DNA from: Nitrospirota bacterium | GTDB taxonomy: Bacteria > Nitrospirota > Nitrospiria > Nitrospirales > Nitrospiraceae | Assembly (NCBI GenBank): GCA_963703955.1 | Contig: CAVPGK010000017.1 | Location: 32,001-96,000 of the forward strand | Length of the DNA: 64,000 bases | Direction of reading: 5' to 3' | In this document: piece after piece, positions 8,874-61,076 of the stretch | Layout of the letters: each line of letters opens with the position of its first letter | Position numbering within the stretch: position 1 is the first letter of the stretch | The notes under the pieces: generated by a model | What the model saw: the letters and a program-made list of their open reading frames with translations, nothing else | The model's database searches: none | Told to the model about the DNA's origin: nothing | Translations under genes and position numbers: made by a program

Positions 8874-8963
8874 GAGCGGCGGAGACTGGGAAATCGGTCG
8901 CGCAGGGGAAGACGAATCAGAAGGCGCGAGGGACAGGACAGCCAACGGGGCTCAACACGTCAT
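8874..8963 (-). ncRNA. Structured 5'-leader motif copy 1 (ATG ACG TGT TGA + three-stem hairpin)
   Basis: TTGACC-17-TAGCAT-6-ATG; stems GAGC/GCTC, GGCTG/CAGTC, TCGCGC/GCGCGA. Confidence 0.7.
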
Positions 8964-9449
8964 GAATGGATGCTACGCCGAGAGAGGCGCTGGGTCAAGC
9001 GGTATTATGAAGTGGGTAACGTCAAGTTCTCTGTGCAAATTCGCGAAGTGCATAGACGATCCGATTACAGGGCCGGGTGTTGCAAGTCAGTTGGTCGCTC
9101 TTGATTGACCCGGATGGCGACAACATCTGCTCCCCCGCTCCAACGGCACTCTGATCCTTCCCTTATGGAAGCCTATCTCGCGACACTCGTCGCCACCCCT
9201 GACGGCAGGCACCGCGTTCCTGTGCATCGAGACTCCCTCCAGATCCGCGCGCGCCAGTGGGCGTTCGGCCCCGACCAGGTCTCCCAGGCAGCCAGCCCAC
9301 GGCTGGTGTCCATCTAAGAAATACATCCATTTCCCCGCTGATCAGCGGGTGATTTCTCATATCGAAAAGGGTATCCTTCTGAGCTAATTGCCTCGTGGAA
9401 ACCCCTAGCCTGTTCTGGTGTTCGCCGGACCGGCAAAAGGTGTATTTAC

Positions 9450-12303
9450 GTGCCCACCCCCGAAGATAAAGCCCGTGAGAAGATCGACGTGGTCTTGGAG
9501 AAAGCTGGCTGGAAGGTACAGGACGCGAAGCAGGCCAATCTTTCAGCGAGCCGAGGAGTCGCCCTGCGTAACTTTACTCTGGCAGGTGGGTATGGGTTTG
9601 CCGACTACCTTCTCTACATCGATGGGAAAGCTGTGGGAGTGATTGAGGCCAAGAAGGAAGGCGTCACGCTGACCGGCGTCGAAATCCAGGCCGCAAAATA
9701 CAGCGAAGGCTTACCGCCGCACCTCCCAGCGACCATTCGCCCCCTGCCGTTTCTCTACCAGAGCACGGGGGTGGAAACTCGATTTACCAATGGCCTCGAT
9801 CCCGCAGCCGCGGAGCCGATCCGTCTTTGCCTTTCATCAGCCCACCACCTTGGCCGGATGGCTCGATCGTGCCGTCGTCGGTGAAGCGCCCGTTCAGCAA
9901 GGGGCAGCCGCCTATCGTGGTCCTCAGTATCGGAGAGTCTCCACGCTCCGAGGTCGCCTCAGACAACTTCCACAGCTAAAGACCGAAGGCCTCTGGCCCG
10001 CGCAGATCACCGCCATCAGGAATCTCGAAAAGTCGCTGGCCGAAGACCGTCCTCGCGCCCTCATCCAGATGGCCACCGGCTCGGGCAAGACCTTCACCGC
10101 CGTCAACTTCATCTACCGGCTCATCAAGTTCGCCGGCGCGCGGCGCGTCCTGTTCCTGGTGGACCGCGGCAACCTCGGCGAGCAGACGCTCAAGGAATTC
10201 CAGCAGTACGTCTCGCCCTACAACAACTTCAAGTTCACCGAGGAGTACATCGTCCAGCGGCTCGACGGGCAACACGCTCGACACCACCGCGCGGGTCTGC
10301 ATCAGCACGATCCAGCGCCTGTACTCCATGCTCAAGGGCCGCGAGCCTGGCCGAGGAGGACGACGAGGCCTCGGTCGAAGGACTGGAGACGGCGTCTTCA
10401 AGGACAGCCCGTGCCCATCGAGTACAACCCGAAGATCCCCATCGAGACCTTCGACTTCATCGTCACCGACGAGTGCCACCGCTCCATCTACAACCTCTGG
10501 GCGCAGGTGCTGGAATACTTCGACGCCTACCTCATCGGCCTCACCGCCACGCCCACCAAGCAGACCTTCGGCTTCTTCCACCAGAACCTGGTCATGGAAT
10601 ACACCCACGAGCAGGCCGTGGCCGACGGCGTGAACGTCAACTACGACGTCTACCGCATCCGCACCGCAGATCACCGAGGCCGGCTCCAAGGTGGACGCCG
10701 GCTACTACGTCGAGAAGCGGGACCGCGAGACCCGCGCCAAGCGCTGGGAGCAGCTCGACGACGACCTCGCCTACGACCCCAACCAGCTCGACCGCGACGT
10801 GGTCGCCCCGGACCAGATCCGCACCGTCGTCACAGCCTTCCGGGACAAGCTCTTCACCGAGATCTTCCCCGGCCGCACCGAGGTGCCCAAGACCCTCATC
10901 TTCGCCAAGGACGACACCCACGCCGACGACATCGTCCAGATCGTCCGCGAGGAGTTCGGCAAGGGCAACGACTTCTGCCAGAAGATCACCTACCGCACCA
11001 CCGGCGCGGACCCCAAGGACGCTGATCAAGACAGTTCCGCAACAGCTACCATGCCCCGCATCGCCGTCACCGTGGACATGATCGCCACCGGCACCGACAT
11101 CAAGCCGCTGGAGATCGTCTTCTTCATGCGCGCGGTCAAGTCCCGCACCTTCTTCGAGCAGATGAAGGGCCGCGGCGTGCGCGTCATCAGCCGGACGACC
11201 TGAAGGCCGTCACCCCCGACGCCACGACCAAAGACCACTTCGTCATCGTGGATGCCGTGGGCGTCTGCGAGACAGGACAAGACCGACTCCCGGCCGCTGG
11301 AGAAGAAGCCCAGTCGGTCACCTTCGAGAAGCTCCTCCAGGCCGTCGCCCTCGGCAACACCGAAGCGGACGTGCTCACCAGCTCGCCGCGCGGCTCGCGC
11401 GCATGGAGCACCGCATGACGAAGGAGGATGAACGAAGATCCGCACGGCGAGCGGCGGCCTCGACACTCAAGGCAGCTCAGCCGCGCCTGATCGAGGCGCT
11501 GAACCCGGACCGCCAGGTGGAGCAGGCCAAGCTCGACCTCGGCATCCCGCCGGACTCGCACGAAGCCGGTCCGCGATCAGGCGGTCAAGGCGGCGGCGAT
11601 CAAGCTCATCCAAGACGCCGTGAAGCCGCTCTGCGATCCGAAGCTCCGCGAACTCCTGGTCGAGATCAAGCGGAAGAACGAGATCACCATCGACCACGTC
11701 AGCCAGGACCAGGTCATCGAAGCCGGCTTCTCCGCCGACGCCCTGGAGCGCGCCCGCGGCATCGTCCAGTCCTTCGAGCAGTTCATCGAGAGAGCACAAG
11801 GACGAGATCACCGCGCTGCAGGTCCTCTACAGCAAGCCCTACAGGCAGCGGCTGAAGTTCGAGGACGTGAAGGATCTGGCCGAACGCATCCAGGCGCCGC
11901 CGTACCTCTGGACCGAATCCCAGCTCTGGCAGGCCTACGCCGCGCTGGAGAAAGACAAGGTCAAAGGCGCCAGCGGCAAGCGCATCCTCACCGACCTCGT
12001 CTCCCTCGTCCGCTTCGCCATGCACCAGGACAACGAGTTGGTCCCGTTCCCCGAGACGCGTCAACGCCAACTTCAACGCCTGGCTCGCGCAGCAAGAGAA
12101 GCCCGCGGAAGCCCTTCACCGAAGAGCAGCGCCGCTGGCTGGAAATGATCCGCGACCACATCGCGGCGAACCTCGGCATCGAGCCGGACGACTTCGAGTA
12201 CGCACCGTTTGCGCGGGAAGGCGGGCTCGGAAAGGTGCATCAATTGTTTGGCGGCGCGCTGGGCTCTATGCTGGAACAGTTTAATGAGGCTTTGGCCGCG
12301 TGA
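9450..12303 (+). CDS. hsdR: Type I restriction endonuclease subunit R (EcoAI/EcoEI-like), many single-base frameshifts
   Basis: ADY..IEAK nuclease motif, MATGSGKT, DECH, GLTATP, MIATGTD, QMKGRG and EcoEI_R_C-like tail spread over several frames. Confidence 0.9.
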
Positions 12304-13735
12304 TGACGCTTGCGGAAATCACAGCCCCGAAAGTTGAACAACGAGGTCCAGCCGGCGACGGCGAATTTACCTATGTCGACATTAGTAGCATCGACAATGC
12401 GTCGAAGCGCATCGTTGAACCGAAACGTCTCCCCGTGGAAAGTGCACCAAGCAGGGCGCGCCAACGGCTACAGGCAGGCGACGTACTTGTGTCAATGACG
12501 CGACCGAATCTCAACGCTGTTGCGTTGGTTCCGAAAGAGCTTAACGGCACTATTGGTTCAACGGGCTTTCATGTGCTGCGGCCGATGGGTGGGATTGAGT
12601 CGCGTTGGTTATGGTATGCGGTTCAGACGAGTACGCTTTATCAAGTCGATGGCACAACTCGTCCAGGGCGCCCTCTTATCCCGCAGTGAGGCCGAAGGAC
12701 ATACGCAGTTTCGAGCTTGAGGTTCCGGAGTACTCTGTCCAGCTTCGCATCGTCGCGGAGATCGAAAAACAGTTCTCCCGCCTCGACGAAGCCGTCGCCA
12801 ACCTCAAGCGCGTCAAGGCCAACCTCAAACGGTACCGCGCCGCCGTCCTCAAAGCCGCCGTCGAAGGCAAACTCACGGTAGAGTGGCGCAAGCAGCATCC
12901 CGACGTTGAACCCGCCAGCAAACTCCTCGAACGCATCCTCGCCGAACGCCGGGCCAAGTGGAGCGGAAAACGGAAATTCGCTGAGCCAGCGGAGCCAGAC
13001 ACGACCGGTTTGCCTGCATTGCGGAATGGTTGGACATACGCGTCCGTGGAACAGCTTGGCATCATTGGCGAGCAAGCTGTTCTTACTGGCCCATTTGGGA
13101 CAAATCTCGGGCGTGAGGATTTTAGGGAAAGTGGTGTACCTGTGATTACTATTTCGTGCCTGAAAGACACTGGCATAGACCTCACCAAGGCAGAGTTTGT
13201 TTCAAAAGAAAAGGCCAGGGAGTTGGATAGGTATCGATTAAACAATGGTGATCTGCTCTTTTCACGAATGGCTGCTGTTGGGCGCGCTGGCATTGTCGGG
13301 GGAGACTTGCGGGGCTCCCTGTTTAATTATCACATCATGCGCCTACGACTAGAACCCACAATATTGATGGCTAAATACTATTTGGCATACGTCAGAGGGT
13401 CAGCCCAGGTAGAGAATTATATTCGTGAAGTTAACCACGGTGCGACGCGCGATGGGATTAACACTGAACAGCTACTCAACATGCCAGTTGCCCTTCCTCC
13501 CTTCGCTGAGCAGGAACGTATTGTCGCCGAAGTCGAGCGCCGCCTGTCCGTGATCGACGAACTCGAGGCCGCTGTCGAAGCCAACCTCATGCGCGCCGAC
13601 CGCCTACGGCAAGCCATCTTGAGCCAAGCTTTTTCGGGAAAGCTGGTGGCCGCTGGGGAAAGAGGTCACGGGAATTTGAAACAAGAGCTTCCTCTGGCTG
13701 CGGAATCTCCGGCTCTGCATGAGAAGACCCGATGA
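12300..13735 (+). CDS. hsdS: Type I R-M specificity subunit S (frameshifted near 12640-12680)
   Basis: Two variable TRDs separated by conserved Q.RIVAEIEKQFSRLDEA and EQERIVAEVERRLS helices. Confidence 0.9.
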
Positions 13736-20509: not shown

Positions 20510-20731
20510 TCACAGCCAAACCGCTGGCTTACGTCGCCGTTGTTCTGGATATTTATGCAAGTTCCGTTGCCGGTGGACCTGTGGATTGGGAGTAAAGTGA
20601 TGCGCTTTGATTTGGTTATCGACTACATTCCCGCAGCACATGCACCGCCATGCCTTCAGCCACGGTCCTCCACCCTCCATATCGATATAGTGGTCCATCA
20701 CCATGAGACCGTAACAGCGTTCGCAGCGCAT
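20510..20731 (-). CDS. Small zinc-ribbon protein, member 2
   Basis: MRCERCYGLMV...WRCMCCGNVVD; AGGAGG SD. Confidence 0.8.
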   Translation of the reverse strand: MRCERCYGLMVMDHYIDMEGGGPWLKAWRCMCCGNVVDNQIKAHHFTPNPQVHRQRNLHKYPEQRRRKPAVWL

Positions 20732-20853
20732 CCTCGTTCCTCCTTTGGCTTATCTTGTCAGAAAGACGTGGACGAGCAAGAGCTCTTCTGGGCAAATACA
20801 GCAGCCCTCGGGTGCAAAGGCGGTCAAAACCCCTTGAGATTGTGATGACGTCG

Positions 20854-20934
20854 GAAGCAGCGGAGACCCGAGAATCAGACGCGCAGGAAGATGAGCGCGA
20901 GAGATAGGAAAGTCGGCGTGGCTTCGAACGTCAT
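20854..20934 (-). ncRNA. Structured 5'-leader motif copy 2 (mini-ORF stop lost)
   Basis: GAAGC/GCTTC, GACTT/GGGTC, CGCGC/GCGCG stems. Confidence 0.6.
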
Positions 20935-21086
20935 GGTGTCATGCTTCGCTTCATTGGGGACGCCGAGACGTGTCAGTGCCCCCATGTTGAAACGCTGTCT
21001 TCCATGTGTATTTTCTACATCGGCAGTAGGAGTACATGGGGGAGGACTCCTACTCGGCATCCGTCGTGCAATGTTACGTTGGTTCG

Positions 21087-21130: not shown

Positions 21131-21274
21131 TTTTGAAGATGAGAGGCAGGCAGTGTCTCATGACTGACCTACGGAGAGCTGACCAAGGTTTGTTGATCAT
21201 TCAAGTCTCTTCAATAGCTTGCCTCCATGCTCGCACCATCTTCGCGTCAACCCCTTGGAGACTGGGAAATCGGT

Positions 21275-21496
21275 CTAGCGCTGCAAAGCCATGACCTCAC
21301 CAGGTCTCCTGACAGTGACCCCTCGATCGTCCACCATGAGGCGCAATTGACCTTTCCGGCTCAGATGATCCAATTCGCGGAAGATCTGACTCCACGTTAA
21401 ATCTGGAAAATGGGATACCAACTCCTCAATCCGACAATCAGGCGCCTTCGCTACCGCTTCGATGATCCGATCAGTAAGAGCAGACTCCGATTGCAT
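21275..21496 (-). CDS. Small putative winged-helix protein (paralog of 44328-44636)
   Basis: DRI.E.V..APDC....LV...P...W.....E...LS..GQ shared by both; GGAGG SD. Confidence 0.7.
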   Translation of the reverse strand: MQSESALTDRIIEAVAKAPDCRIEELVSHFPDLTWSQIFRELDHLSRKGQLRLMVDDRGVTVRRPGEVMALQR

Positions 21497-22649: not shown

Positions 22650-22693
22650 ATTATGCCTATGAGAGGAATCGCCGTCTGGTCAAAATTGCTCAG
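22650..22693 (-). promoter_or_regulatory. Crp-type box B + -10 (CATAAT)
   Basis: CTGAGCAATTTTGACCAG, 20 nt, CATAAT. Confidence 0.8.
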
Positions 22694-22759
22694 TTTTGAA
22701 AAATGAGAGGGCAGGCAGCTTGGCAGTGTCCCCGCTCGACGCCAACAGCACCTATCGGA

Positions 22760-22891
22760 ATAGTCGTGCAGGACCTATTGAGGAGAGAGCTGTGAACTTG
22801 CAATCCGCCCTTATAGTGAATGAAGCCCAGCTTCCTGAACGTATTCATGAAGAAACTGACCCGTGACCGAGTGGTGCCGACCATTTCGGCC
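22760..22891 (-). pseudogene. 3' remnant of Crp/Fnr regulator gene
   Basis: AEMVGTTRSRVSFFMNTFRKLGFIHYKGGLQVHSSLL matches the C-terminus of 36140-36794. Confidence 0.85.
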
Positions 22892-22959
22892 ACACAGCAT
22901 CTGGGTTCCTGTGGCAGAGGACTAACAAAAACCAGCGTGAGGGACCTTTTTTGGAGCGG

Positions 22960-25900
22960 TCACTCTGTGTTCACTGGTGCGGCGTGTATTCTCACCTCGG
23001 CCCAGTGTTCCTGGCGGTCATCAATAAGGGGAATAGCCTGGTCGTGTTGGTCAACACCATCGACTATCACGCTCGTCTGGTTGTTCGCGGCGTCCGTTTG
23101 GAGGACGGTGATATGGTAAACCGTTTCCCGGTATCGGTAGTGTACCGTGAACGCCCTCCAATCCGCGGGGAGGCAGGGAGCGAAACGCAGTCTGTCTACT
23201 TCCAGCCGTAGCCCCAGGAGCGACTCCACGATAAGCCGGTACATCCAGCCGGCCGAGCCCGTGTACCACGTCCATCCACCGCGACCATTGTGGGGCGAGA
23301 GTGCATAGACGTCGGCCGCGACGACATATGGTTCTACTTTGTAGATCGCAATCCCCTCCAGAGATGTCGCATGATTCACCGGGTTGACCATGGCCAACAG
23401 CTCCCACGCGCGTCGGCTGTCTCCCAATGCGGCGAACGCCATGGTCGCCCAGATCGCCCCATGTGTGTACTGCCCGCCGTTTTCTCTCACGCCCGGGACG
23501 TATCCTTTGATATAGCCGGGATTCAGATCGGATTTGTCGAATGGCGGATCCAATAGTTGGATCAGCGAATGGGCCCGGCGAACGAGGCGCTTATCCACCG
23601 CATCCATGGCCATGCGGGAGCGGTCGACATCGCCCGCCACCGGAGAGAACCGACCAGCTTTGCGCAATCGAATCGATCTGGCATTCGGGATTACTCGCCG
23701 ACCCAAGTGGCGAGCCATCGTCAAAGTAGCCACGGCGATACCACTCTCCATCCCAGCCATGCTGCTCGATATTTTGGCGCACGTGAGCCGCCTCCCTCCG
23801 ACAACGTTCAGCGAAAGGCACGTCACCCCGCAGGCGTGCCACCTCAGCGAACTGCATGAGGACCTCATACAGGAAGAATCCCAACCAGACGCTTTCTCCC
23901 TTACCGTGTTCGCCGACCATGTTCATGCCGTCGTTCCAGTCACCGGAACCAATGAGTGGGCAGACCGTGCTCCCCACGTGTGAGGCCTCTCAGAATGGCT
24001 CGCACACAGTGTTCGTACAAACTGGCCGCCGCCTCAGACCGGCCTGGCAGATCGTAGTATGAGTCCTCCTCCATGTTGACCGGCCGGCCTTCGACGAAGT
24101 GGATGGGTTCATCCAACACCCCGGTGTCCCCGGTGCTCAGAACGTAGCGGCATGTCGCCAGGGGTAGCCAGAGGTAGTCATCCGAACAGTGCGTACGCAC
24201 GCCCCGACCTGAAGGCGGATGCCACCAGTGCTGGACATCTCCCTCCTGGAACTGACGGGCCGCGCAGAGCAGCAGGTGCTCGCGCACAAGATGCGGCTCG
24301 GTATGGATGAGCGCCATCACGTCCTGCAACTGATCGCGGAACCCGAAGGCGCCCCCTGATTGGTAGTATCCGCTCCGCGCCCAAAGACGGCACGCCAGCG
24401 TCTGGTACAAGAGCCAGCCGTTGGTCAGCACGTTGAGCGACTGGTCTGGCGTTTCCACCTGCACGGCGCCGAGCGTGTGCTTCCAGTACTGCCACACCGC
24501 TTCGAGCGCGCCACGCGCGGCAGCAGATCCACGGAAGCGATGCACCAGATTGCTGGCCTCATCGACGTTTCGCCCGACGCCGAGCCTGAAGATGATCTCG
24601 CGCTCCTGTCCGTCGGCCAGGTCGAAGGGAACCTGGATCGCGGCGCAGGGATCCAGAGCGGCCCCCACCTTGCCGGAAAGCCGCGACCGATTCATCGCAG
24701 CCGGACTTCGAAGCGTGCCGTTGCGCCCGATAAATTCAGTCCGGTCGCCACTCACGGTCCGAGTCGTATCGTCCACGTCGAAGAAGGCAATCCGACCGGC
24801 GAACTCGGTGTTGTAGGGATTGCGCGCGAAGAGCGCGCCGCTGTTGGGGTCAATTTCGGTGATCACGTGCATGGCCGATTTCGGCCGCAGATCTCCCAGC
24901 ACCCATTCGACGTAGCCCGTCGCGGACAGCCTGCGCGATCGGCCTGACTCGTTGCGCACTTTCAGCACCATGAACTTGATCGGTGCATCCAGGGCCACGT
25001 ACACCCACAGCTCTGAGCGAATGCCGCGCTCCGTGTGCTCGAAGACGCTGTAGCCGAAGCCGTGCCGGCTGACGTAGGCATCGCTCCGCGGCTGGGCAGC
25101 GGCGTGGGCGACCAGAAGTGGCCGCTCTCTTCGTCGCGGATGTAGAAGGCTTCTCCGCTCGAATCGCTCACCGGGTCGTTGTGCCAGGGAGTGAGACGGA
25201 ATTCGTGGGCGTTCTCGCTCCAGGTGTAGGCCTGGCCGTTCTCCGAGATGACGGTTCCAAAGTGCGGATTCGCCAGCACATTCACCCACGGTGCCGGCGT
25301 CACTTGCCCGCGCGCGGTCGTGATGACGTACTCGCGCCCGTCAGGCGTGAATCCTCCCAGTCCGTTGAAGAAGATCAGATCGTGGCGCGGCAACGCGGCG
25401 GATGGCGAAGGTTCGGCGCGGCGGGTGCGGGTTGACGTAAGGCGCGGCACGGTGACTTCCACCTGGCCGCGACGGGTGATCTGTTCCGCCAGCGTTCCCC
25501 GCCTGTCGGTGATGATGGCGCGCGCGACCGATTGGAGCAGAATGCGGTCCTCGTTCGATATCTGCTCCGCAGGACGCACGAAGATGCCGCCGGGTCGATC
25601 CATCACATGCGCTTCGACGCCCGCGGCAATCAGCCCCATGATTTGTTCCTGGAGCAGTTGCCGGTAACCGGCGTGATCTTCGTTCCAGATCACCAGGTCC
25701 ACGGCCAGCCCCTTCGAGCGCCAGTACGCGTGGGCCTGCACGAGTTGGCGTACCAGATCGATATTGGCCGGGTCTCCAATCTGCAGCAGCACGATCGGCA
25801 GATCGCCGGAGATGGCGTAGCCCCATAGACCGGATTGCCCGCGGCGGTTCTTGATGAGGACGCCCGGGTCGGCGCGCAGGGAGGAATTGGCGTAGATGAC

Positions 25901-28900
25901 GGAGCTGGCCAGGCGTCCATAGAGTTGCGCGTCGGCCTCGGTGGCATTGAGCTGCCGCAGGACCACCTGGCTGTGGGTCCATGCCAGATCGAAGACGCGA
26001 TCGGCGAGACGCCGATCCTGGTATTTCTCGACCAGGCCCAGGCAGACGTCGCGGGTTTCGCCGATGCCGGACACCATATCGATCGTGGCCGATTCTTCCG
26101 GATCGAGCGTGATCCGATATCGGATCGCGACAATCGGATCCAGCACCGAGCCCTGGCTGCCCGAGAGCGCCGCGGAATCGCTCATCGCTTGTGGCGCAGC
26201 GACGGTGTTTCCACGGCCGATGAACTGCATGCGGTCCGTCTCATAGGAAATCTCTCCGATGTCCGCCCCGTGCACGGCCATCAGGTGAAACATCCATGGC
26301 GTCTGCTCGTCGAGGGAGCGCGGGCCGGCGAGTGCAGAGGATCGCCTGCCGCTCCGCGGATGATCTCGGTCTGAACAAAGAGATTGCTGAACGCCGGATG
26401 CAGCGCGTCCGCGGCAGACGAGGTCGAGAACGACTTCCGCGTAACTCGTGACGTCGATCGTTCTGCGTGTCCGAGAGCCGTTGGTGATGCGGATTCGGCG
26501 CAGTTCGATGTCATCTTCCGGCGAAACAACGATCTCCGTATGCGTATCGAAATCGTGGTCGCGGCGGCGAAACTCAGCCCGTCCCTCAGAAAAAATGACT
26601 TCGTAATTCTTCGATGGCTTCAGGGTCGGCTGATAGGCGGTCGACCAGAACTCCCCGCTCGTCACGTCGCGGATGTAACAGAACGTGCCCCAGTTGTCGC
26701 AGGTACTGTCTTCGCGCCAGCGCGTGACTGCGATGTCCTTCCAGCGACTGTACCCGCCTCCCGCGTTCGTGATCATCACGTGGTATCTGCCGTTCGACAA
26801 CAACTGCACTTCCGGAATCGGAGTGTTCGGGCTGCTGAACACGCGCACCGGTGTCTCCGCATCCACTGGAAGTCGTCCGTACGTCGGAAAGCTCGGCGGT
26901 GTGCGAATAGAACGCCGTGGCCTTTGGAATCCGCTCCTGGAGCAACAGCGTGGTCGCCTGAAACAACGGATCCGACTCAAATCGTTTCTGCATCGGACGG
27001 TCCAGGATCAGATAGGCCAGAGAAAGGAGGCTCATGCCCTCGTGATGCGCCATGAAGGACCGAACCACCGCGCTCGATTGTCCCCGTGGGAGACGGGAAG
27101 GAGTGTAGTCGATGGCTTCATAGAAGCCGAACTGTCCTTCAACCCCTTCAGCCGCGAGTCGCTGCAGGTTCAGACACGCCTCCTCGGGCGCCACCATCAG
27201 GGCGAGCGCCGAGGCATACGGCGCAATGACCAAATCCTCGGCAAGCCCGCGTTTGAGTCCCAGGCCGGGCACGCCAAATGCGCGGTACTGGTAGTTAAGA
27301 TGAACGTCGATCGTGTTGTAGCCGGATTCCGACATGCCCCATGGGACGTCCGCGCTGCCTTCCATACTCGATCTGTCTCTCCACCGCCGCCTTGTAGGTC
27401 TGGTCGAGCAGCGTGTTGTCGTAGGTCGGCATCACCAGCAGCGGCATGAGGTACTCGAACATCGAACCGCTCCACGAGAGGAGAACCGGCCCACCACCGG
27501 CGGTCGTGAGCAGGCGCCCCAGGGCAAACCAGCTGCTCCTGCGGCAGTTGTCCCTGCGCAATCGCCACGAAACTGCACAATCTCGCTTCCGACGCCAGCA
27601 GATCGTAGTAACTCGAGTCCCGCCGGCGCTCACCGACGTTGTACCCGATAGCCAGCAGATGACATCGCCTTGTCGAACAGGAAGTCATACTCCATGCTGG
27701 CGAAGTTGACTTGATTGCAGTGCAAGTCCTTCGACGGCCGCAATCCTTTCTCTGGCGCGTTGGCTTGCCTTCGCAATGAGCCGTTGAAGGCCATCAACCC
27801 ACTCGCTCTCCTCGTGCGTCACCTCCGAGCGCAACCGATGTTCGATTGCCGGCAGACACTCCGCGTCAAGTCTTGCCAATTCGCGCAGCGTTGGGATCTC
27901 GTCGATGTCGGGAAATTCGCTGAGCCTATTCGGTGAGGCCGACAGCAATGTCCACGGAGCGAGAAACATCAGCTCATCGAGGGCGTCACGGCATTGCCGG
28001 GCAAGCGCGCGCGCCCACCAGGTGGCTTGGCTCTCGGGGTCGGCCTTAAGGCCAGCGAGCACCTCCTCGGCGGTCGTCGCCAGCCGGTCAAGGCAGAGCC
28101 GCGCCGCCGTGAGCGTGGTTGGCCGGGAATCGTAGACAGACTCCAGATGCTTCTGAAATTGAACGAGCTGGGCCGGAGCGGCTTCTCCCGCAGCGTCCAC
28201 GAGGACCCTGAGTGTGTCGCTGAGCCCGTCAAAGAATCGCGACCCCAGGATCTTCTGATCGGGAAGTGCGAGCAGACCCGGCCGCAATGTCAGCAGATGG
28301 CCCGCAAGGTTTCCGCTGTCCACCGTCGAAATGTAGGTAGGGAGCAGCGGTTTCAGAGACTGCGTGTCGTACCAGTTGTAGAAGTGGCCTCGGTGCCGTT
28401 CCAACGTTTCCATCGTGTGGAGTGCATTCGCCGTGCGCTCGATGAGTTGTCCGGCCGAAATGTAGCCGAAGTCGTACGCGGACAGATTCGCGAGCAGCGC
28501 AAGTCCCATGTTGGTCGGCGACGTGCGATGCGCGACCACGGCAACGGGATGCTCCTGATAGTTATCAGGCGGCAGCCAATGATCTTCCGGACCGACGAAC
28601 GTCTCGAAGAACGCCCAGGTCTTTCGGGAAAGCTTCCGGAGAAAGATGGTCTGGTCAGCCGTCAGCCTTGCTGCGCGCCGAGCGAGCGGCCGGCTGATCC
28701 ACCACGCGATAGCGGGGGAGGCAAACCAGAGACCCAGTATGGGCACAGCCACAGCTAACGCGACCGGCTCAGAAAGCGTCAGATAGATCACCGCGGCAGT
28801 GGCAAGCACGGGGGCGATCCACATCGTTCGATAGAAGGCGACGAGGTCTGTGCGGCGATCGCGATCCGGGTCGCCCGACGGATTCCATTCGAGAAGTCGT

Positions 28901-37153: not shown

Positions 37154-37389
37154 CCTACGCCAGACTCTCTTTAAAGGCACTGTCATGCCTTTCCGGTCAT
37201 CGGAGGCCAATGCCCTCTTTCTGGCTTGTAATGTGCTCTCCAGGAAAGCAGCATGCCGGACCGCCGCCGCCAATGCGACGAGCGGAATCATACGATGGGC
37301 ATTGGACAAATCCGTTGGCCCTACAAACGACCCGGTAAGGTTATCAAAAGTCGAATCACGGTCTCGCGTAAAAACAAAAGGAGGGCGAC

Positions 37390-37629
37390 ATGAACCACGA
37401 GCAATTCAAACAGAGTTGGTGCCAACTTGAGGGACATCTTAAGAAGCACTGGGGAAAACTCACGAAGGACGATCTTGCACGGATTGATGGCGATTTAGAT
37501 ACATTCAACAGCGCCATCGAACAGCGTTACGGCGAGATGAAGGGAGAGGTCAGCAAGTGGGCGGACCGATGGTATGCCCGGTGGACCGGGTGGTATGAAG
37601 GGTACGAAGAGGCGAAACCGACCTCTTGA
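37390..37629 (+). CDS. CsbD-family protein (one aa different from 4732-4971)
   Basis: Near-identical DNA 37371-37650 vs 4713-4992. Confidence 0.8.
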   Translation: MNHEQFKQSWCQLEGHLKKHWGKLTKDDLARIDGDLDTFNSAIEQRYGEMKGEVSKWADRWYARWTGWYEGYEEAKPTS

Positions 37630-39315: not shown

Positions 39316-39699
39316 CAACAAAGAAGGCGAGTCTTGAAGGAAGCTCATTCCAAGCATGACCCCATAGCGGTCGGTGAGAGAGCGACTACGAGATCCTTAG
39401 CCAGGCTGATTGTCCTCTCATCGCGTTTCTGCTTTGCCCTGCGCGGCGGGTTCCTCGGAGTAACGAGTCACAAGGAGCAGCGATGATTAGCATAACGTTC
39501 AAGGAAATCTGGCATGACACCGGCGTAGAGCTCGCACTGGGACTATTCCTATTCGTCATGGTCGTCGGTGCTCTCTTGACGTTCTTGATGTCGGGATAAG
39601 GCCGCCGGTGTGTGACGGCAAAGAGACCGGAAGCCCATACGGTCTTTCGAAGGTGACCGATGAGATCTCAAGCAGATTCTGAAGACTAAGGAGAACGAT

Positions 39700-42534: not shown

Positions 42535-43441
42535 ATGAGTAGAGAGCGAATCAAAATTGCGCCAGAGTTCTTCGACATCATGCCGCCTGAGTACCAGGAT
42601 TTGGTCACGAAGGCGACCTACGGCAATGAGAGCCGTGGCTGGAAGGACATCGGGACAAGTAAGGAATTGATTGAAGAGCATGCCCTCTGCGCTGGGTGCC
42701 CGGAATCCATGGCGTTTCGATACATTCTCGCCTCTCTTCCCAATCCCGAGGACACGGTCATGGTGGGGTCGACCGGCTGCACCAGCCTGGTCTTTCCGCA
42801 CGTCGCCATCCACAATATCCACTCGCTGTTCGGAAATCAGAACGCGATAGCCTCCGGCCTCAAGCGGGCCTTGACCGTCCGCTTCCCGGGCCGAATCAAG
42901 GACGTCGTCGTGCTGGCCGGCGATGGCGCAACGGTGGACATCGGACTGGACATGACCCTGCAGGCGTGGTTCCGTCAAGAGAAATTCACCACCATCTGCT
43001 TCGACAACGAGTTGTATGCGAACACCGGAGGCCAGGAAAGCGGGCTGATGCAAAAGGGCTTCGTGGCCAAAATGGCCCCGATGGGAAAGAGTTTTGAGAA
43101 GGTGCGCCTTCCGGAAATTGCGCGTGAATCAGGCTGTCACTATGTCGTGAACTGCACGGTGAGCAAGCCCTCGCTCGTTGAGAAAGTCATCAGGAATGCG
43201 GTCCTGGTGGCGCGAGAAATTGGTCCCACCTATCTCGCAGCTCTACACCCCCTGCATTTTGGAGATCGGGAAGGACAGCATGGAGGGCCTTCAGGAGATG
43301 CGTGACTCGGAAAGGCCGAGCGAACGGTTCGCGTATAAGGAGTACATCAGCGAGCCGGCGAAGCAGCTCTTAACTGAAATCGCCGCCAAGGACAAGGAAA
43401 AGAAGGCCGTCGCGAAGCAGTTGGTGTCCCAGGAAGCGTAA
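42535..43441 (+). CDS. porB: 2-oxoacid (pyruvate):ferredoxin oxidoreductase beta subunit (frameshift near 43240)
   Basis: LCAGC, TGC, GDG...DIG, DNELYANTGGQ TPP motif; YTPC in next frame. Confidence 0.85.
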
Positions 43442-43496
43442 GAAATAGGGCTAAATAGCGGTTGACTCGGCTGCCTATTGCGCGTAGGGTGAGGCT

Positions 43497-43567
43497 ATGG
43501 TGTGTTAAGCTTCGCTGACTGTCCTATCTCTCGCGTCTGTCCCGCGACCGATCCCCAGTCTCCGCTT
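43497..43567 (+). ncRNA. Structured 5'-leader motif copy 4 (ATG GTG TGT TAA) upstream of iscA
   Basis: TTGACT-17-TAGGGT-6-ATG; AAGC/GCTT, GACTG/CAGTC, TCGCG/CGCGA. Confidence 0.7.
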
Positions 43568-43714
43568 CCTGCACCGTTTCTTTCAAGGGCGCTTTCATTG
43601 CCATTGTATGACCGGAGGCGACTGCCGCGTTCTGGTTTCCAGAGGGGTGTCTCTACACATGGGCGGTTGAGGCGCGTCGGGCGCTCCAGTCAATCAGAAA
43701 AAAGGGGGAGAGTG

Positions 43715-44035
43715 ATGATTACGATAACGTCGATGGCTGAAGAGAAGATTCGGGAACTCATGCTGGAGGAGAAGGACACGATTGGTCTGCGAGTGTTCGT
43801 GAAAGGCGGAGGCTGTCATGGGTACCAATACGGGATGTCGTTCGAATCCAACATGAGCGAGGACGATACGGTGATTGAGAAAGGTGATGTGAAGGTCATT
43901 ATGGATTCGCAAAGCGCCCCGCTGCTGAGCGGCGCCGAGGTCGATTATCTGGAAAGCTTGCAGGGCTCCGGCTTTGCGATCAAGAACCCGCAAGCGAAGA
44001 CGACCTGCGGGTGCGGCAGTTCATTCAGCGCCTAA
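43715..44035 (+). CDS. iscA: A-type Fe-S carrier (IscA/ErpA family)
   Basis: GGGCHG.QY and NP.AKTTCGCGSSF. Confidence 0.9.
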   Translation: MITITSMAEEKIRELMLEEKDTIGLRVFVKGGGCHGYQYGMSFESNMSEDDTVIEKGDVKVIMDSQSAPLLSGAEVDYLESLQGSGFAIKNPQAKTTCGCGSSFSA

Positions 44036-47917: not shown

Positions 47918-48737
47918 TTACAAGGCATCCTGCGCACACCGGATGCCCACAAATGGGGCTTTGTTCGCAGGAAAGTAACTGTCCCGGAAAGTGGATTTCA
48001 CCATTTCCTTGGAGTCAGCGAACGACCCACCTCGGATCGCCTTTTGTGTGCCGTGAGAGGGGCCCTTCGGATTGCTGTCCGGGCTTGTTGCGTAATATTC
48101 TTCGTCGTACCAGTCCGCCACCCACTCCGCGGCGTTTCCCGCCATGCCGTAGATCCCATGGGGACTCTTGCCCCCCTCGTCGCTATCCACCGGCCTTAGA
48201 TTGTCATTATATCGGGTGCCTGAAAAGGGCTTATTGTAATTCGTCAGTTTAGAAGAAGGGGCTGCGTTTCCCCAGGGGTAACTGCGGCCGTCCATCCCTC
48301 GTGCTGCTTTCTCCCACTCAGCCTCAGTAGGGAGACGCTTTCCGGCCCAGCGACAGTAGGCTTCGGCTGCGTTCCAGCTGACACCGATCACCGGCCTATC
48401 CCCATCGTGGGACAGCTGGATGTCAGCCCAAGACATCGGCACAAATCCAGGTTCAGGCCGGTCCAGTGGCTGCTAAGAATGTCGCATAGCGCGCTGCTGT
48501 CACCTCATAGAGGTCCATATAGAACGCGTACAGGTACACTCCGTGGGCCGGCTTGCCCCTGTAGGATCGTTCTTGGCTCCCCATCATAAATCCCCCGTCT
48601 CGGATCCAAGCCATTGGGGCTCCATTCTTACGAGCCTCGGCCTCCAACGCTCGGCGAGTCTCGGCTACCGTGGGGATAGTCGGACTGAGAGCAGCAAGCC
48701 CGGCCAGAATCGTCATGGTAAGAGCGAAGCGTCGCAT
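47918..48737 (-). CDS. FGE-sulfatase (SUMF1) domain exported protein, frameshift near 48450
   Basis: [42 protein letters not shown]. Confidence 0.88.
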
Positions 48738-48895
48738 GGGAGACCTCCAATGTTCAATGCGGTTAAAAATGTTACATGCCGTAAAAATGTCGCATAATGT
48801 GGTTTTACCCCGGCCAGGCAGGCCCGCTCTACGAAGCCATGGGCTCAAAATTGGCGAGCGTTAGGAGATCGTCAATGGGCGAGCATGTTAGCAGC

Positions 48896-48939: not shown

Positions 48940-48990
48940 TTTGAAGACGGATACGGTCACCTCTGGCCTCCGGTTTGAAATCTTCGAAAC

Positions 48991-49035
48991 AAGAGCAATT
49001 TTGACCAGACTCCTTTCCACCCAGAGGTATAGCAT
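48991..49035 (+). promoter_or_regulatory. Crp-type box H + -10 (TAGCAT)
   Basis: AAGAGCAATTTTGACCAG, 21 nt, TAGCAT. Confidence 0.7.
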
Positions 49036-49184
49036 TGAGGGAGGTATCGTTGCGTCACGGATGCGAAGGAGGAGTCCCTCGATGTACTACTGCTGTCGAT
49101 GTAGCAAAGACACAATGGAAGACAGCGCTTCAACATGGGGCACTGACATGTTCTCCCGTCCCCAATGAAGCGACGCATGACACC

Positions 49185-49266
49185 ATGACGTTCTAAGCCA
49201 CGCCGACTTTCCTATCGCTCGCGCGCATCTTTTCCTGCGCGTCTGATTCTCGAGTCTCCGCTGCTT
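49185..49266 (+). ncRNA. Structured 5'-leader motif copy 5 (ATG ACG TTC TAA)
   Basis: AAGC/GCTT, GACTT/GAGTC, CGCGCA/TGCGCG. Confidence 0.65.
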
Positions 49267-49394
49267 TCTACGCCACAGTCTCTTTGAAAGGGGGCGGCTT
49301 TCACTGCCTTTAAGTTCTTGTGCGCGTAGGGCTGCTGTATCTGCCCAGAGGATCTCTTGCTCGCCCACGTCTTCTGACAAGAGGAGGAACGGAG

Positions 49395-49616
49395 ATGCGC
49401 TGCGAACGCTGTGACGGTCTCATGGTGATGGACCACTATATCGATATGGTGGGCGGAGGACCATGGCTGAAGGCATGGCGGTGCATGTGCTGCGGAAATG
49501 TGGTCGATAACCAAATCAAGGCACATCACTTCGCTGCCGATCCACAGGTCCACAGGCGACGGAGCTTGCGTAAATTTCAAGAAGAAGGGAGACTTCAACC
49601 AGCGGTTTGGCTGTGA
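49395..49616 (+). CDS. Small zinc-ribbon protein, member 3
   Basis: MRCERCDGLMV...WRCMCCGNVVD; AGGAGG SD. Confidence 0.8.
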   Translation: MRCERCDGLMVMDHYIDMVGGGPWLKAWRCMCCGNVVDNQIKAHHFAADPQVHRRRSLRKFQEEGRLQPAVWL

Positions 49617-49669
49617 TCGCCGTTACGTCCGCCATTCGTTTGCAAGACGAGATCATAGAGGCCTGCGGG

Positions 49670-49780
49670 CAAGAACGAGAATACCAACATCGTGCAGGAG
49701 CTGAATCTTCTGCCTGTGAAGATCTACTGCTCGGTGCTGGCGGACGATGCGATTAAGGCAGCTTGGATGACTACAAGAAA
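49670..49780 (+). pseudogene. iscU 3' remnant
   Basis: NTNIVQELNLLPVKIYCSVLADDAIKAA. Confidence 0.75.
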
Positions 49781-50119
49781 TCCGTGGAACCCAAAGTCAC
49801 AAACAAACGACAAGCGGTGTCGAGCTGAAGACGCTTCCGGCGATTCGTTTGCGATTTCGCCAACTGAGAGTTCAACGCGGAAGGATGTAGAAATCAATAG
49901 CAAACGCAGCAGTGAAAGGGAAAGCGCCGTGATGACGAAGGTGCGACGGGTGGCGAGGCGCAAGAGCGCACGGGCCGCAGGGAGGGCGAAATCTTTAGGA
50001 TCAATGCCAATCCCTTAATCCGTCTCGCGTGCGTCCTTCTGGATGGGGGATAATCGGCGGCGGCTGGCTGAAAGTGGTCAATTCATGGCCGGTAGGAGCG
50101 AGTTGCCTGAGGAGGAAAG

Positions 50120-55822: not shown

Positions 55823-55900
55823 GTAGCCTAATCCGTCATTGCCTCCGCACCGTTTCACGAACGCGAATGACGTTATCACCAGGAGGAAGAGGAGGGCAGC

Positions 55901-56122
55901 ATGAACCAGGAACAATTCAAAGGGAGTTGGGACCAGCTTAAAGGAGAGCTCAAGACGCAATGGGGCAAACTGACCGACGATGATCTTCTCCAGGTGGAGG
56001 GCGATCAGGACAAGTTCAACGGCGCCATCCATAAGCGGTACGGCGAAATGAAGGAATTAGTCAGCCAGTGGGTCGATCGGTGGCATGAACGAGACCGACA
56101 TTCGAAAAAAACGACACTGTGA
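55901..56122 (+). CDS. CsbD-family protein
   Basis: FKGSW.QLKG.LK.QWGKLTDDDL. Confidence 0.88.
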   Translation: MNQEQFKGSWDQLKGELKTQWGKLTDDDLLQVEGDQDKFNGAIHKRYGEMKELVSQWVDRWHERDRHSKKTTL

Positions 56123-58199: not shown

Positions 58200-58349
58200 G
58201 ACATTGCTCCTTTTCCTCGAGTCGTCCTTTCAGTGTCAGTGCTCAACTTAGATGCATCAGGACGATTCAGCGTCGACACCACTTAATGGGGGAAGCACGT
58301 AAGGGGGAGGCTAATCTGGGAAGGCCTCCCCTCTCGCGTCAACAGGGCG

Positions 58350-58941: not shown

Positions 58942-59142
58942 CTACTGCACCAGCGAAACACCGTATCGAGGACGACCCTGGCTCCGCGTCGGTATGTGGA
59001 GACCTTTCCGATTCGCGTCAATTACCGAATCGATCACCTCACCACACAGCAGGCATTGCCAGCCGGAGAAGCAGAGTGTCGAGCTTCCCGCATCCTCCAA
59101 CCGGATGGTCACCATCAGACCCTGACAACGAAGGCAGTTCAT
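58942..59142 (-). CDS. Small zinc-ribbon protein, member 4
   Basis: MNCLRCQGLMV...WQCLLCGEVID; closest to 11-235. Confidence 0.75.
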   Translation of the reverse strand: MNCLRCQGLMVTIRLEDAGSSTLCFSGWQCLLCGEVIDSVIDANRKGLHIPTRSQGRPRYGVSLVQ

Positions 59143-60023
59143 GAGTTGACCTCTGGGGCTCACAACACAGCTTAAGGTTTCGGCACGCCCTAACCGACGC
59201 CTACACCGTCCACGAAGCATGGCAGACGGCCAGGGACCCCGCCAATTTGAGACCCGTCCTCCGAGACACGAACGGCGCCGTTCTGCTGTGCAAAAGCGAT
59301 AAAATCAGTGCTGAAGTCTGGCGTTGGAGCGGCGGAGACTGGAGATCGGTCGCGCTAGGAAGGACCGGGAAACGCGAGGGATAGGACAGCCAGCGTGGCT
59401 GAAACGTCTCTGATGTATATTGCGCGTGAAGGGGCAGCTTAGTCAAGCGGTATTAATCGGGGCTGTGATAGCAGGTGTTGTCGCACTATTCTTATTTATG
59501 CAACCTTCGCTGGACCCATGCCCACCTTTCTATTCTCGGAGAGCCATTTTCTGTGAGGCTCTTGGCAATTCAAACCGCATGGTTCGCAAATTGTTCAGTT
59601 CGGGGACCTTGGTCAAGACCCGAAGCATTGCTCAGCTTTTCTGTAACCAGTTCCAACATCGTTTACTCACTCACTGACCAAATGGAAGTATGGTGACTCA
59701 CAATCTCGGTTTAATCTCGGTTCCCGCACATCGGCCATTAGCACGCCCTGCATTAATCCTGGTCCGATTCCGTATGGCATTGGTGGCTTCCCTCCTTGAT
59801 GTCGGCCCGACGAGCCAGGCCCCCCGCTCACGTATTCACCACCACCTTGCGACCCGCGCTGTTGCGAAAGTCGAGCTGAGGATAGCAAGATCTTGCGCTG
59901 AGGCGCCTTGTTTGGACCTGGCCAACTCCTGCACACACGATGTCCGGTTGATGTCTTCCGGTGGGTCATGCGGCCTTCACCAGCAGGTCAATGGTAAAGC
60001 TGAGAAGTCGTTCCGTAGTCTGA

Positions 60024-60215
60024 GGTCGCGCAGTGGAGATCCAGGCGAGTGGAAAAGATGTCGAGTTGGGCGACAAGCTCGTCAAGGGCGCCGATGTCAT
60101 GCGAGATAGTAGAGACATCTATTTGTCGTGGGCGCGCCATTATGTCGCGCTATCTGAGGGCAAACCCGAAGCGGCTGAAGATGAAGATGAGGATGAGGTC
60201 GAGTTCGGCGTGTGA
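60024..60215 (+). pseudogene. 3' duplicate fragment of 46938-47204
   Basis: Near-identical DNA with one extra 6-bp ED repeat. Confidence 0.8.
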
Positions 60216-60992
60216 ATGTTTACTGTCGTCGAGAATATGGGCCCCCGTCTCAGGTCCGTTAACATTTCTAGGGGTCGATCCGGGTCAGGGGTGGGATTGG
60301 GAACTGGCGCAGGATTCGGATTGGGAAGTGGAGGTCCGGGAAATGGATTCGGATCGGGTGGAAGCGGAGGCGGCTCGGGCTGGGGACTCGGCTCTAAGAG
60401 AGGGGAGACAATGTGAAACATGCTCAGCTCGCTCTTAATGTTGCAGGGCGGTCGCGAGGTGATCGGACGTATCCGATAACTGAAAATGTTTCGCACTGAG
60501 CCGGAACCAGGTGTTCATGTTGACTCACCATCCGACAGAAGGGCGTCAACCTCGGCTTCGCTACACGTCAGACCCTCGACTCCACGTCTAGGTGAGCGGG
60601 AGCCTGCACGTTTGAGCGATTTGTTGAACAGATGGTCTTTAGGTTGTTCTGCTTCCGCTTCAGAGCTGATTGCCATCATTGGTTCTCCTTTCGTCGGTTA
60701 CTGGAGGAACAGGTAACTCTGCTCTCGTGAGCCGGCCACGGCGGCCACTCTGCAATGGCGAGTCGATCGCCAGACACGTACATGGCAGTTTTTTCGTTTC
60801 GTTCTACTGTGGGAGCCGAGGAAAAAGGAGAAGTTGAAGGCGAAATTGGGATTTCAACGACCCTTCATCGGAGCGCTTTACCCACGATGGGAAGACATAA
60901 CCACACATAGCAGGAAGTCAACGGCGGAATACGCAGTTTTATCGATCAATATATCGCTTGACGGCCCCGCTCTTTGCGCCTAGCATCCATCT

Positions 60993-61076
60993 ATGACGTG
61001 TTAAGCCCCGCTGGCTGTCCTGTCCTTCGCGCTTTCTGATTCTTCCTGCGCGACCGATTTCCCAGCCCCGCCGCTT
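60993..61076 (+). ncRNA. Structured 5'-leader motif copy 6 (ATG ACG TGT TAA)
   Basis: TTGACG-17-TAGCAT-6-ATG; AAGC/GCTT, GGCTG/CAGCC, TCGCGC/GCGCGA. Confidence 0.7.

Follow-up and report, generated by a model that had tools for sequence, protein, structure and literature searches.

Seven copies of a leader hairpin in a Nitrospirota contig

We analyzed a 64,000-nucleotide (nt) stretch of DNA, here called the window, which comprises positions 32,001 to 96,000 of contig CAVPGK010000017.1 in assembly GCA_963703955.1 of a Nitrospirota bacterium. Members of Nitrospira oxidize nitrite, and some of them oxidize ammonia completely, in soils, waters, and treatment plants; they grow slowly and are hard to manipulate. 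To our knowledge, almost nothing has been established about the regulation of their stress genes. An earlier note on this DNA had described a repeated leader in front of six genes and had read it as a leaderless three-codon open reading frame (ORF) fused to a hairpin, acting as a ribosome-gated attenuator or a 5' stabilizer. Here, we report that the element is a real and conserved cis-acting RNA family of Nitrospira-type bacteria, apparently undescribed until now. The earlier interpretation was partly supported: the repeated, covarying, sense-strand leader holds, and the parts that concern a leaderless ORF, cysteine, and attenuation fail.

A covariance model (model 1) was built from the six copies and a hand-written structure and was run on the window with its filters off. 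The six copies were found where they had been placed, were mutually related, and scored 65.1 to 105.4 bits, and the model now sets their boundaries. The inventory was incomplete, because a full seventh copy had been missed. All seven sit 5' of a co-oriented gene. Copy 1 (8863 to 8965, reverse strand; 85.1 bits, E = 6e-22) has the 5' end ATG ACG TGT TGA and precedes a gene at 8451 to 8744 (reverse strand) for a small signal-peptide-like protein of the "AEDTLKAC" family, which follows 10 leaders and has no Pfam family. Its promoter (8970 to 8998, reverse strand) consists of TTGACC at 8998 to 8993, a 17-nt spacer, and TAGCAT at 8975 to 8970; this promoter and those of copies 3, 4, and 6 were read from the sequence. 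Copy 2 (20843 to 20936, reverse strand; 97.2 bits) has an ATG with no early stop and lies upstream of a gene at 20510 to 20731 (reverse strand) for a zinc-ribbon protein of 73 amino acids (aa) with the pattern CxxC...CxxC. Copy 3 (37066 to 37165, forward strand; 96.1 bits) follows a promoter at 37032 to 37061 (TTGACA, 18-nt spacer, TAGCCT), and 224 nt 3' of it lies a CsbD-like gene at 37390 to 37629 on the same strand (PF05532, E = 3.9e-10, 39.9 bits against a curated cutoff of 40). A Crp/Fnr-family regulator gene (cNMP_binding plus HTH_Crp_2) at 36143 to 36631 on the reverse strand is divergent from copy 3, and a fragment of another gene of that family lies at 22693 to 22893 (reverse strand).

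Copy 4 (43495 to 43582, forward strand; 65.1 bits) is the shortest and has a 3-nt deletion in its 3' arm. It follows a promoter at 43462 to 43490 (TTGACT, 17-nt spacer, TAGGGT) and precedes an IscA/HesB-type Fe-S assembly gene at 43715 to 44035 (PF01521, E = 1e-19), all on the forward strand. Copy 5 (49183 to 49278, forward strand; 105.4 bits) is a paralogue of copy 2 and lies upstream of a gene at 49395 to 49616 (forward strand) for the 73-aa zinc-ribbon protein P0001. As had been suspected, copies 2 and 5 belong to one duplicated block (21140 to 20076, reverse strand, against 48980 to 50049, forward strand), with 81% identity over 1101 columns. Copy 6 (60991 to 61087, forward strand; 87.3 bits), with its promoter at 60958 to 60986 (TTGACG, 17-nt spacer, TAGCAT), precedes a gene at 61165 to 61359 for a predicted 64-aa membrane peptide on the same strand. 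The seventh copy (59316 to 59412, reverse strand; 63.9 bits, E = 8e-16) starts CAGAGACG, without an ATG. Its promoter (59446 to 59417, reverse strand) comprises TTGACT at 59446 to 59441, an 18-nt spacer, and CAATAT at 59422 to 59417, and the gene behind it (58942 to 59142, reverse strand) encodes a 66-aa zinc-ribbon protein.

A supposed decayed copy at 39386 to 39475 (forward strand), with a ribosome-binding site and an ORF for a small membrane peptide behind it, has lost its 3' arm; it is plausible in that the 5' arm is retained by eye, yet it is not significant under the model (8.4 bits, E = 8.3). A fragment at 21256 to 21275 (reverse strand) is a 19-nt match to the 3' arm (GACCGATTTCCCAGTCTCC), likewise read from the sequence. 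The whole 3.3-Mb assembly holds 12 good model matches, the seven of the window included. Among the other copies, some start ACGACG and some are without promoter and basal helix altogether.

Several genes of the window appear to be broken into adjacent ORFs, at 22963 to 26980 (reverse strand), 9450 to 13735 (forward strand), and 47921 to 48848 (reverse strand). A GH94 glycosyl hydrolase/cyclic glucan-type enzyme and a type I restriction R subunit are each divided into three, and an FGE-sulfatase is divided into two; these are frameshifts, pseudogenes, or assembly errors of a metagenome-assembled genome (MAG).

Structure, strand, and taxonomic range of the element

The element is a rod-like imperfect hairpin of about 100 nt with five short helices (P1 to P5), internal loops between them, and a variable C/U-rich cap loop. 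The stems drawn in the earlier note do fold copy by copy, with z scores of -2.5 to -4.4 against dinucleotide shuffles in five of the six copies; the exception is copy 4, at -0.03 in the same cut. The drawing was incomplete in that it left out the basal helix, which pairs the ATG itself and is gained when a few flanking bases are added. In this helix, P1, UGACGU pairs with ACG-CCA about 85 nt downstream, so that the U and G of the "start codon" lie inside it. P1 contains a conserved A-C mismatch, replaced by G-C in some copies: of 82 copies, 56 have A and 14 have G at column 6, which faces a conserved C. The basal helix of copy 4 is compensatory (GGUGU/GCACC), and that of copy 2 is longer (ATGACGT with ACGTCAT). 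Past a small loop, P2 pairs (G/A)AGC with GCU(C/U). A 2x2 loop, a C-G and a G-C pair, and a second 2x2 loop lead to P3 (GACUG with C(A/G)GUC), a 4x4-5 loop of UCCY against UUCCC leads to P4 (AUC with GAU), and a loop of YC(U) against (U)YY leads to P5 (CGCGC with GCGCG), which bears a UCC-rich apical loop of about 12 to 35 nt. The internal loops are almost purely pyrimidine on both strands, and their conservation equals that of the helices. The hairpin as a whole is 65 to 70% pyrimidine, and the seven window copies contain 36 to 42% C, 20 to 23% G, and 9 to 14% A. Its predicted stability is -25 to -34 kcal/mol at 37°C, and pair probabilities are still at least 0.76 at 50°C.

Short variants of the element occur at G000:C10:32678-32740 (reverse strand) and at locus L066 of genome G003. 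They have the promoter and the first 25 or so and the last 15 or so nt of the leader, and they keep the ATGACGT ... ACGCCAT helix without the inner helices. The genes behind them encode a protein of the "W-x-RIPDGT" family and a cNMP-binding oxidoreductase, respectively.

The pairing was examined in two wider alignments. Among 68 distinct model matches, 94.1% of 1617 cells were paired, and 20 of the 25 pairs had changed on both sides. There were 85 doubly changed cells, compared with 20.6 in column shuffles (none of 500 reached 85) and 11 to 35 when the 3' partners were slid by 1 to 3 columns. A second set of 83 copies was retrieved by a DNA pattern that itself freezes P3 and P4; here, 93.8% of cells were paired, 12 of 25 pairs had changed on both sides, and 45 cells were doubly changed, compared with 12.6 after shuffling. 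As examples of compensatory change, CGCGC/GCGCG is replaced by CGCAC/GUGCG in leaders of CsbD genes and by CGCGU/ACGCG elsewhere, AUC/GAU gives way to ACC/GGU or AUU/AAU, and GAGC/GCUC alternates with AAGC/GCUU. The non-Watson-Crick cells were G-U in 109 cases and A-C in 31, and the seven window copies scored 64 to 105 bits in the sense direction and 9 to 30 bits in the antisense direction. This excess of G-U and the asymmetry of the scores indicate that the structure belongs to the sense RNA. Thus, the compensatory changes and the sense-strand G-U bias that had been described for six copies hold on wider alignments.

Judged by information content, conservation fades to background over the 7 or so nt that follow the hairpin. 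Two extensions of the structure were considered and rejected. A 3' extension or pseudoknot through AGAG-U-CUCU, often followed by GAAGCGC, looks complementary to the apical stem but shows no covariation with it, and an alternative pairing of the 5' arm with a CAG(AG)UC repeat after the hairpin had no supporting variants that we could see.

Model 1 found the element in 26 of 41 genomes, namely, the window's own and 40 relatives, with one to six copies in each genome other than the window's own. One of the 26 carriers (G006) is unpublished and was left out of all alignments. By family, the 40 relatives divide into f1, the window's own (21 of 24 genera), f3 (4 of 5), f2 (0 of 6), and f4 (0 of 5). 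A second model, trained on 60 matches and run on 151 genomes across the phylum, matched 17 of them, including 15 of 18 in f1 and the one genome of f5, and gave no match in the remaining 20 families (0 of about 131 genomes). The copy number is 1 to 12 per genome. When one genome from each of 185,579 species was searched with a degenerate pattern for the inner arms, at least 119 stretches were retrieved. Among the 80 matches listed, 77 were named Nitrospira, Nitrospiraceae, Nitrospirales, Nitrospirae, or Nitrospirota, and the other three were one "Deltaproteobacteria" MAG contig and two sequences of an "uncultured bacterium." N. defluvii, N. lenta, and Nitrospira sp. NS4 are among the carriers with a species or strain name.

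In agreement with the earlier impression that the motif is not a described family, no Rfam 15 family fits. The whole window gave no match at the gathering score and none at E values up to 5, and a search with 251 nt around copy 6 returned only the FTX_3 long noncoding RNA, a meaningless hit (12.3 bits, E = 9.2; gathering score, 55). We found no described Nitrospira leader motif or map of transcription start sites in the main texts searched, PMC5737381 and PMC6606698 among them.

A repeat of this kind might be a feature of the DNA, that is, a mobile promoter-bearing repeat resembling a miniature inverted-repeat transposable element (MITE) or a repressor operator made of long inverted repeats. 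One genome can hold as many as 12 copies, with the promoter travelling along; two copies lie in the duplicated 1.1-kb block, and copy 3 has a regulator gene of the Crp family just 5' of it. Against such an origin stand the G-U bias, the loss of 55 to 75 bits on the reverse strand, the low copy number, the constant placement 5' of a co-oriented gene, and the lack of a match to an Rfam family or a known repeat. Moreover, the apical loop varies from 12 to 35 nt while the helices keep their pairing and not their spacing. The leaders also covary with the downstream gene family across genera, which argues for vertical inheritance and not for recent transposition. We regard an explanation at the level of the DNA as exceedingly improbable. 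Membership in the MITE or repetitive extragenic palindrome (REP) class was also rejected on the low copy number together with the promoter in 124 of 150 copies and the co-oriented gene in 128 of 150.

Promoter geometry and the three-codon reading frame

The earlier note had pointed to TTGACn-17/18-TAnnnT ending 6 nt before the A of an ATG in four copies, and this was confirmed for copies 1, 3, 4, and 6. Of 150 copies, 124 have a TTGAC-like -35 element at 33 to 38 nt (most often 35 nt) upstream of model column 3, and the -10 element (TAGGGT, TAGCAT, or CAGGGT) is found at an offset of 23 to 28, which gives a spacer of 17 nt and puts column 3 seven bases past the -10 element. In a set of 82 copies, 56 have a purine at column 3 (36 A and 20 G), and the others have C (17) or T (9). 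The +1 position proposed earlier is thus borne out, as a prediction, by a promoter geometry that is fixed in most copies: the predicted +1 is column 3, and the hairpin starts one base later, at column 4, with P1 taking bases +2 to +7. From this geometry, we infer that a sigma-70-type promoter would start transcription at the hairpin foot or within two bases of it. Many copies across genera also have an A/T-rich stretch, (A/T)ATA(A/T)TAC-GC, directly 5' of TTGAC (for example, at 9010 to 8999 on the reverse strand and at 60945 to 60957 on the forward strand), with a modest 0.2 to 0.4 bits of information per position. This stretch could be an UP element or an activator site.

The RNA data examined were assembled metatranscriptome contigs (7 runs from 3 studies, with 7 to 20% of sampled words), which are uninformative on starts or strand. 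In the four runs that were compared with the window, copies 4 and 5 were covered by contigs, and fragments of paralogous copies were also present. In two studies (X2 and X3), contigs share a start at 43651 to 43654, which is 70 nt past copy 4 and leaves 60 nt to iscA; this hints weakly at RNA processing or at a second start there.

Within the window, five of the six copies of the earlier note do read ATG-x-x-stop (MTC*, MTF*, MVC*, MTF*, and MTC*), with the A at the predicted +1; copy 2 runs on without a stop. It had been proposed from this reading that a ribosome on the 5'-terminal AUG of a leaderless three-codon ORF gates an attenuator through the basal stem, possibly in response to cysteine, and leaderless short ORFs that sense cysteine are reported from mycobacteria (bioRxiv 10.1101/834739). 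Conservation of the ORF was assessed in 82 copies retrieved by the inner-arm pattern, which is blind to the 5' end, and in 67 copies found with the ATG-seeded model. An ATG was present in only 21 of the 82 and 23 of the 67, and ATG-x-x-stop was present in 15 and 17, respectively. In the 82-copy set, some form of NTG occupied the position in 47 copies, a point in favor of a start codon, and ATG or GTG did so in 33. The other codons there were GTG (12), CTG (10), ACG (7), TTG (4), and CAG (4), with CCG among the remainder. Whole gene families are without a leader ATG, namely, DUF1328 (0 of 16), "MTPEEQ" (0 of 6), and "PKHPGYP" (0 of 7). At the "ATG," the conserved letters are U4 and G5, whose partners in P1 are A and C. 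The "stop" is the U directly 5' of the (G/A)AGC helix; 33 of 44 copies with ATG have it, as do 32 of 105 without, and this association arises because one subtype has the canonical spacing.

The link to cysteine did not survive either. In the 33 ATG-x-x-stop copies, codon 3 was Tyr in 16, Cys in 10, Phe in 5, Leu in 1, and a stop in 1. The short ORF holds no run of Cys codons and at most one Cys codon, and among four iscA leaders, three have the ATG and only that of the window reads MVC-stop. Nor was there a device for a ribosome to gate. In our own scan, a hairpin with a U-run resembling a terminator occurred in only 7 of 128 leaders, so that a classical transcription attenuator was rejected, and the consensus folds of three family alignments contained no pairing of the hairpin to the ribosome-binding site and no conserved structure over that site that a stalled ribosome could open. 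We conclude that ATG-x-x-stop is a by-product of the UG/CA pairing in the basal helix and of the U that flanks (G/A)AGC, and that it is no working part. The ribosome-gated ORF is the least likely of the readings that we weighed, and its lack of conservation already largely refutes it. A tidy-looking leaderless mini-ORF can arise by an accident of helix sequence.

Possible functions and relation to known systems

A co-oriented gene with a ribosome-binding site follows the element in 128 of 150 copies. By family, and with orthologues counted so that the numbers are not independent, these genes encode zinc-ribbon proteins (20), CsbD-like proteins (20), DUF1328 proteins (16), the AEDTLKAC signal-peptide protein (10), a periplasmic "PKHPGYP" protein (8), a 64-aa "MTPEEQITKMKK" protein (6), a "W-x-RIPDGT" protein (5), and IscA (4), besides many singletons. 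The Pfam names found downstream are CsbD, DUF1328, YtxH, Zn_ribbon_8, Fe-S_biosyn, and RRM_1. CsbD, DUF1328/YtjA, and YtxH proteins are members of general-stress sets in other bacteria. The window also encodes PsiE, SPFH, Kup, and an Na+/H+ exchanger. The leaders of one gene family share variants of their own, which suggests that the leaders are old and were inherited with their genes. The zinc-ribbon paralogues (60 to 80 aa) have the layout CxRCxGLMV ... GWxCLLCGE ... I-ANRK-H-EP ... RAR, ending in a basic tail, and the window holds a member at 11 to 208 (forward strand) in addition to those behind copies 2, 5, and 7. Their profile has 16 matches in the window's own genome and 4 to 17 per f1 genome, and in the phylum's other families it has 1 to 5. 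They belong to neither a Pfam nor an NCBIfam family, no solved relative was found, and the Atlas contained only unnamed Nitrospirota clusters.

Between 37 and 280 nt separate the hairpin from the ribosome-binding site, and this spacer is not conserved even inside one gene family. This variability bears on the possibility of translational control in cis, in which the C/U loops and the 3' arm (UCC, CUCC, and UCUCC) would serve as an anti-Shine-Dalgarno sequence: a remodelled hairpin would pair with the downstream GGAGG and shut translation, or the hairpin would keep the two apart. The pyrimidine-rich hairpin with its all-C/U loops would suit such a role. When whole leaders were folded, the hairpin stayed a separate domain in six of eight and was broken in two (C15:166040 and copy 1), where the 3' arm paired with the ribosome-binding region. 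These two folds carry little weight, because any C/U-rich RNA complements any Shine-Dalgarno site. Together with the varying distance, the very high predicted stability of the hairpin and the failure of the three family alignments to show any long-range pairing, conserved or covarying, make control of this kind unlikely.

The scarcity of intrinsic terminators leaves room for factor-dependent termination, and in E. coli, long leaders of stress genes are known to be under the control of Rho. The C-rich, G-poor leader might accordingly load Rho conditionally or make the polymerase pause close to the promoter, so that less transcription would read through into the stress genes, as its base composition in the seven window copies would allow. 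However, Rho needs unstructured RNA, whereas the C-rich segments are locked in a stable hairpin, and conservation ends 7 nt past it. We consider this explanation very improbable.

The conservation of the internal loops, equal to that of the helices, raises the question of whether the RNA is itself a sensor, with the pyrimidine loops and the basal A-C mismatch (A or G at column 6 opposite the conserved C) forming a pocket for a ligand, protons, or a metal ion in the manner of a riboswitch aptamer. Single-hairpin ion riboswitches with conserved internal loops are known. Neither a terminator nor a sequestered ribosome-binding site was found as an expression platform, though, and the downstream genes form a mixed stress set that indicates no single ligand. 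The predicted persistence of the pairs at 50°C leaves no thermometer in the physiological range. A sensor role therefore appears quite improbable. On the same grounds, the riboswitch class, defined by an aptamer and an expression platform, was rejected: the hairpin is conserved, but it has neither terminator nor pairing to the ribosome-binding site. RNA thermometers of the ROSE and fourU types were rejected on the stability of the pairs and on the ribosome-binding site lying 37 to 280 nt away.

We propose, with moderate confidence, that the element is a clade-specific, autonomous leader module at the 5' end of its messages, an end-protecting stabilizer and probably also a factor-binding tag of a stress regulon. 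The sigma-70-type promoter (TTGAC, 17 nt, TAGGGT or TAGCAT) would start the mRNA at the hairpin foot, and the hairpin would head the mRNAs of 1 to 12 operons per genome, which encode small stress-type proteins. With no single-stranded 5' end left, these messages would be shielded from the 5'-end-dependent decay carried out by RNase E/G, and the invariant C/U loops would be a shared tag read by a trans-acting factor, so that the set would be coregulated. A module that is fixed at the 5' end and indifferent to the distance of the gene fits a protective 5'-terminal stem-loop, and stem-loops of this kind reportedly stabilize bacterial mRNA, a principle credited to Emory, Bouvet, and Belasco (1992) and to Bouvet and Belasco (1992), both cited in PMC3997798. 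The window's own genome has one RNase E/G gene; in that assembly, which is 82% complete, no RNase J was found, and no RNase Y scored above the curated cutoff. The role of 5' stabilizer, one of the two offered by the earlier note, remains the most economical function.

Several observations weigh against this proposal. A plain stabilizer needs neither invariant loop sequences nor 100 nt, so stabilization alone underexplains the anatomy; the second role, that of a recognition tag, was added because protection does not account for a leader of this length with invariant pyrimidine loops. Copies 2 and 5 have a -10-like hexamer but no TTGAC. Two copies of the window's own genome (C17:30237 and one resembling L029) are without promoter and basal helix and look intercistronic, and end protection there would first need processing. 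Some metatranscriptome contigs span the predicted promoters, at 43237 to 43609 and 43449 to 43663 for copy 4 and with 63 letters 5' of 60993 for copy 6. Finally, both alignments were fitted to a covariance model, which biases them toward pairing, and related genomes are not independent.

We suggest, but only tentatively, that the element is the RNA tag of a posttranscriptional general-stress regulon: a dedicated reader would bind the invariant pyrimidine loops at the extreme 5' end of each message, or the loops would sense protonation or ions. If this tentative reading is right, a dozen operons for small stress proteins might be stored, stabilized, or released together. Candidate readers, both of them weak leads, are RRM-type RNA-binding proteins and the expanded family of zinc-ribbon proteins with basic tails, whose own genes stand behind the leader. 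In at least 6 of 17 motif-bearing genomes (G000, G009, G017, G066, G104, and G164), a copy has an RRM-protein gene within 2.5 kb of it (0.35 to 2.4 kb). In G000, the RRM gene at C13:54688-54897 (reverse strand) adjoins copies at C13:55251-55355 and 55884-55983 (both forward strand), and at locus L038, a divergent leader, a gene for a basic 90-aa protein, and an RRM gene follow one another on one strand. RRM_1 was rejected as a clade-specific partner, since it is present in 101 of 151 genomes of the phylum, and only the gene neighborhood remains as a lead. The zinc-ribbon family was rejected as a dedicated partner: its profile occurs in 89 of 151 genomes, including those of the motif-free families f2 (7 of 7) and f15 (25 of 27), and is thus not codistributed with the leader.

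This work yields a covariation-supported RNA family fit for annotation of the Rfam type, a candidate list of a stress regulon made up mostly of unstudied small proteins, and a compact bait for a reading factor. If the element does act as such a regulon tag, it would be a bacterial counterpart of the cap-proximal logic of iron-responsive elements. In animals, these elements are conserved hairpins near the 5' ends of related mRNAs and tag them for one trans-acting reader. The likeness is an analogy only, as the two differ in domain of life, structure, and size, and the Nitrospira reader is hypothetical.

Among bacterial systems, the mycobacterial attenuators are described as leaderless short ORFs with polycysteine tracts, in which an RNA duplex covers the ribosome-binding site downstream (bioRxiv 10.1101/834739). 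They resemble some Nitrospira copies in that a 5'-terminal AUG opens a very short ORF beside an RNA structure, and in that the device is common to several operons. In contrast, the Nitrospira ORF is not conserved and has neither a polycysteine tract nor a structure over the ribosome-binding site, and the genes downstream are not those of cysteine metabolism. REP, MITE, and other intergenic repeats are likewise repeated, hairpin-forming intergenic sequences, whereas the Nitrospira leader is low in copy number, fixed in orientation and position behind a promoter, and conserved with its gene families across genera.

A further likeness is to the cold box of E. coli cspA. Like that box, the element lies at the extreme 5' end of long stress-gene leaders. 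The cspA leader has TGACGTACAGA at +7 to +17, and many Nitrospira copies start (A)TGACGTACTGA or TGACGTATTGA at +2 to +12; aligned to the cold box, their letters read TGACGTA(C/T)TGA, the same in up to 10 of 11. The cold box reportedly acts as a stabilizing stem-loop, a role ascribed to it by Xia et al. (2002), cited in PMC1636342. In Nitrospira, these letters form the 5' side of a helix whose other strand lies about 85 nt downstream, whereas in cspA, they form a small local hairpin, and no cold-shock-domain gene was found downstream of the leaders among 147 ORFs scanned. An E. coli-type cold box leader was therefore rejected despite the box-like letters. The likeness is only a lead, because 11 letters can agree by chance and because the local structure and the downstream genes differ.

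The closest parallel is with the stabilizing stem-loops of the ompA 5' untranslated region and of papA. Like those, the hairpin is predicted to stand 0 to 2 nt from the 5' end, inside the limit of about 3 nt for such stem-loops, which would leave no single-stranded tail; it would work as a module at a distance from the ribosome-binding site, and the host has RNase E/G. It differs in being far longer (about 100 nt and five helices), in its invariant loop sequences, in being common to a set of operons, in its family-wide conservation together with a promoter, and in that its stabilizing role is predicted. Although it is a member of no described family, the leader would, by analogy, work most like a 5' stabilizer hairpin.

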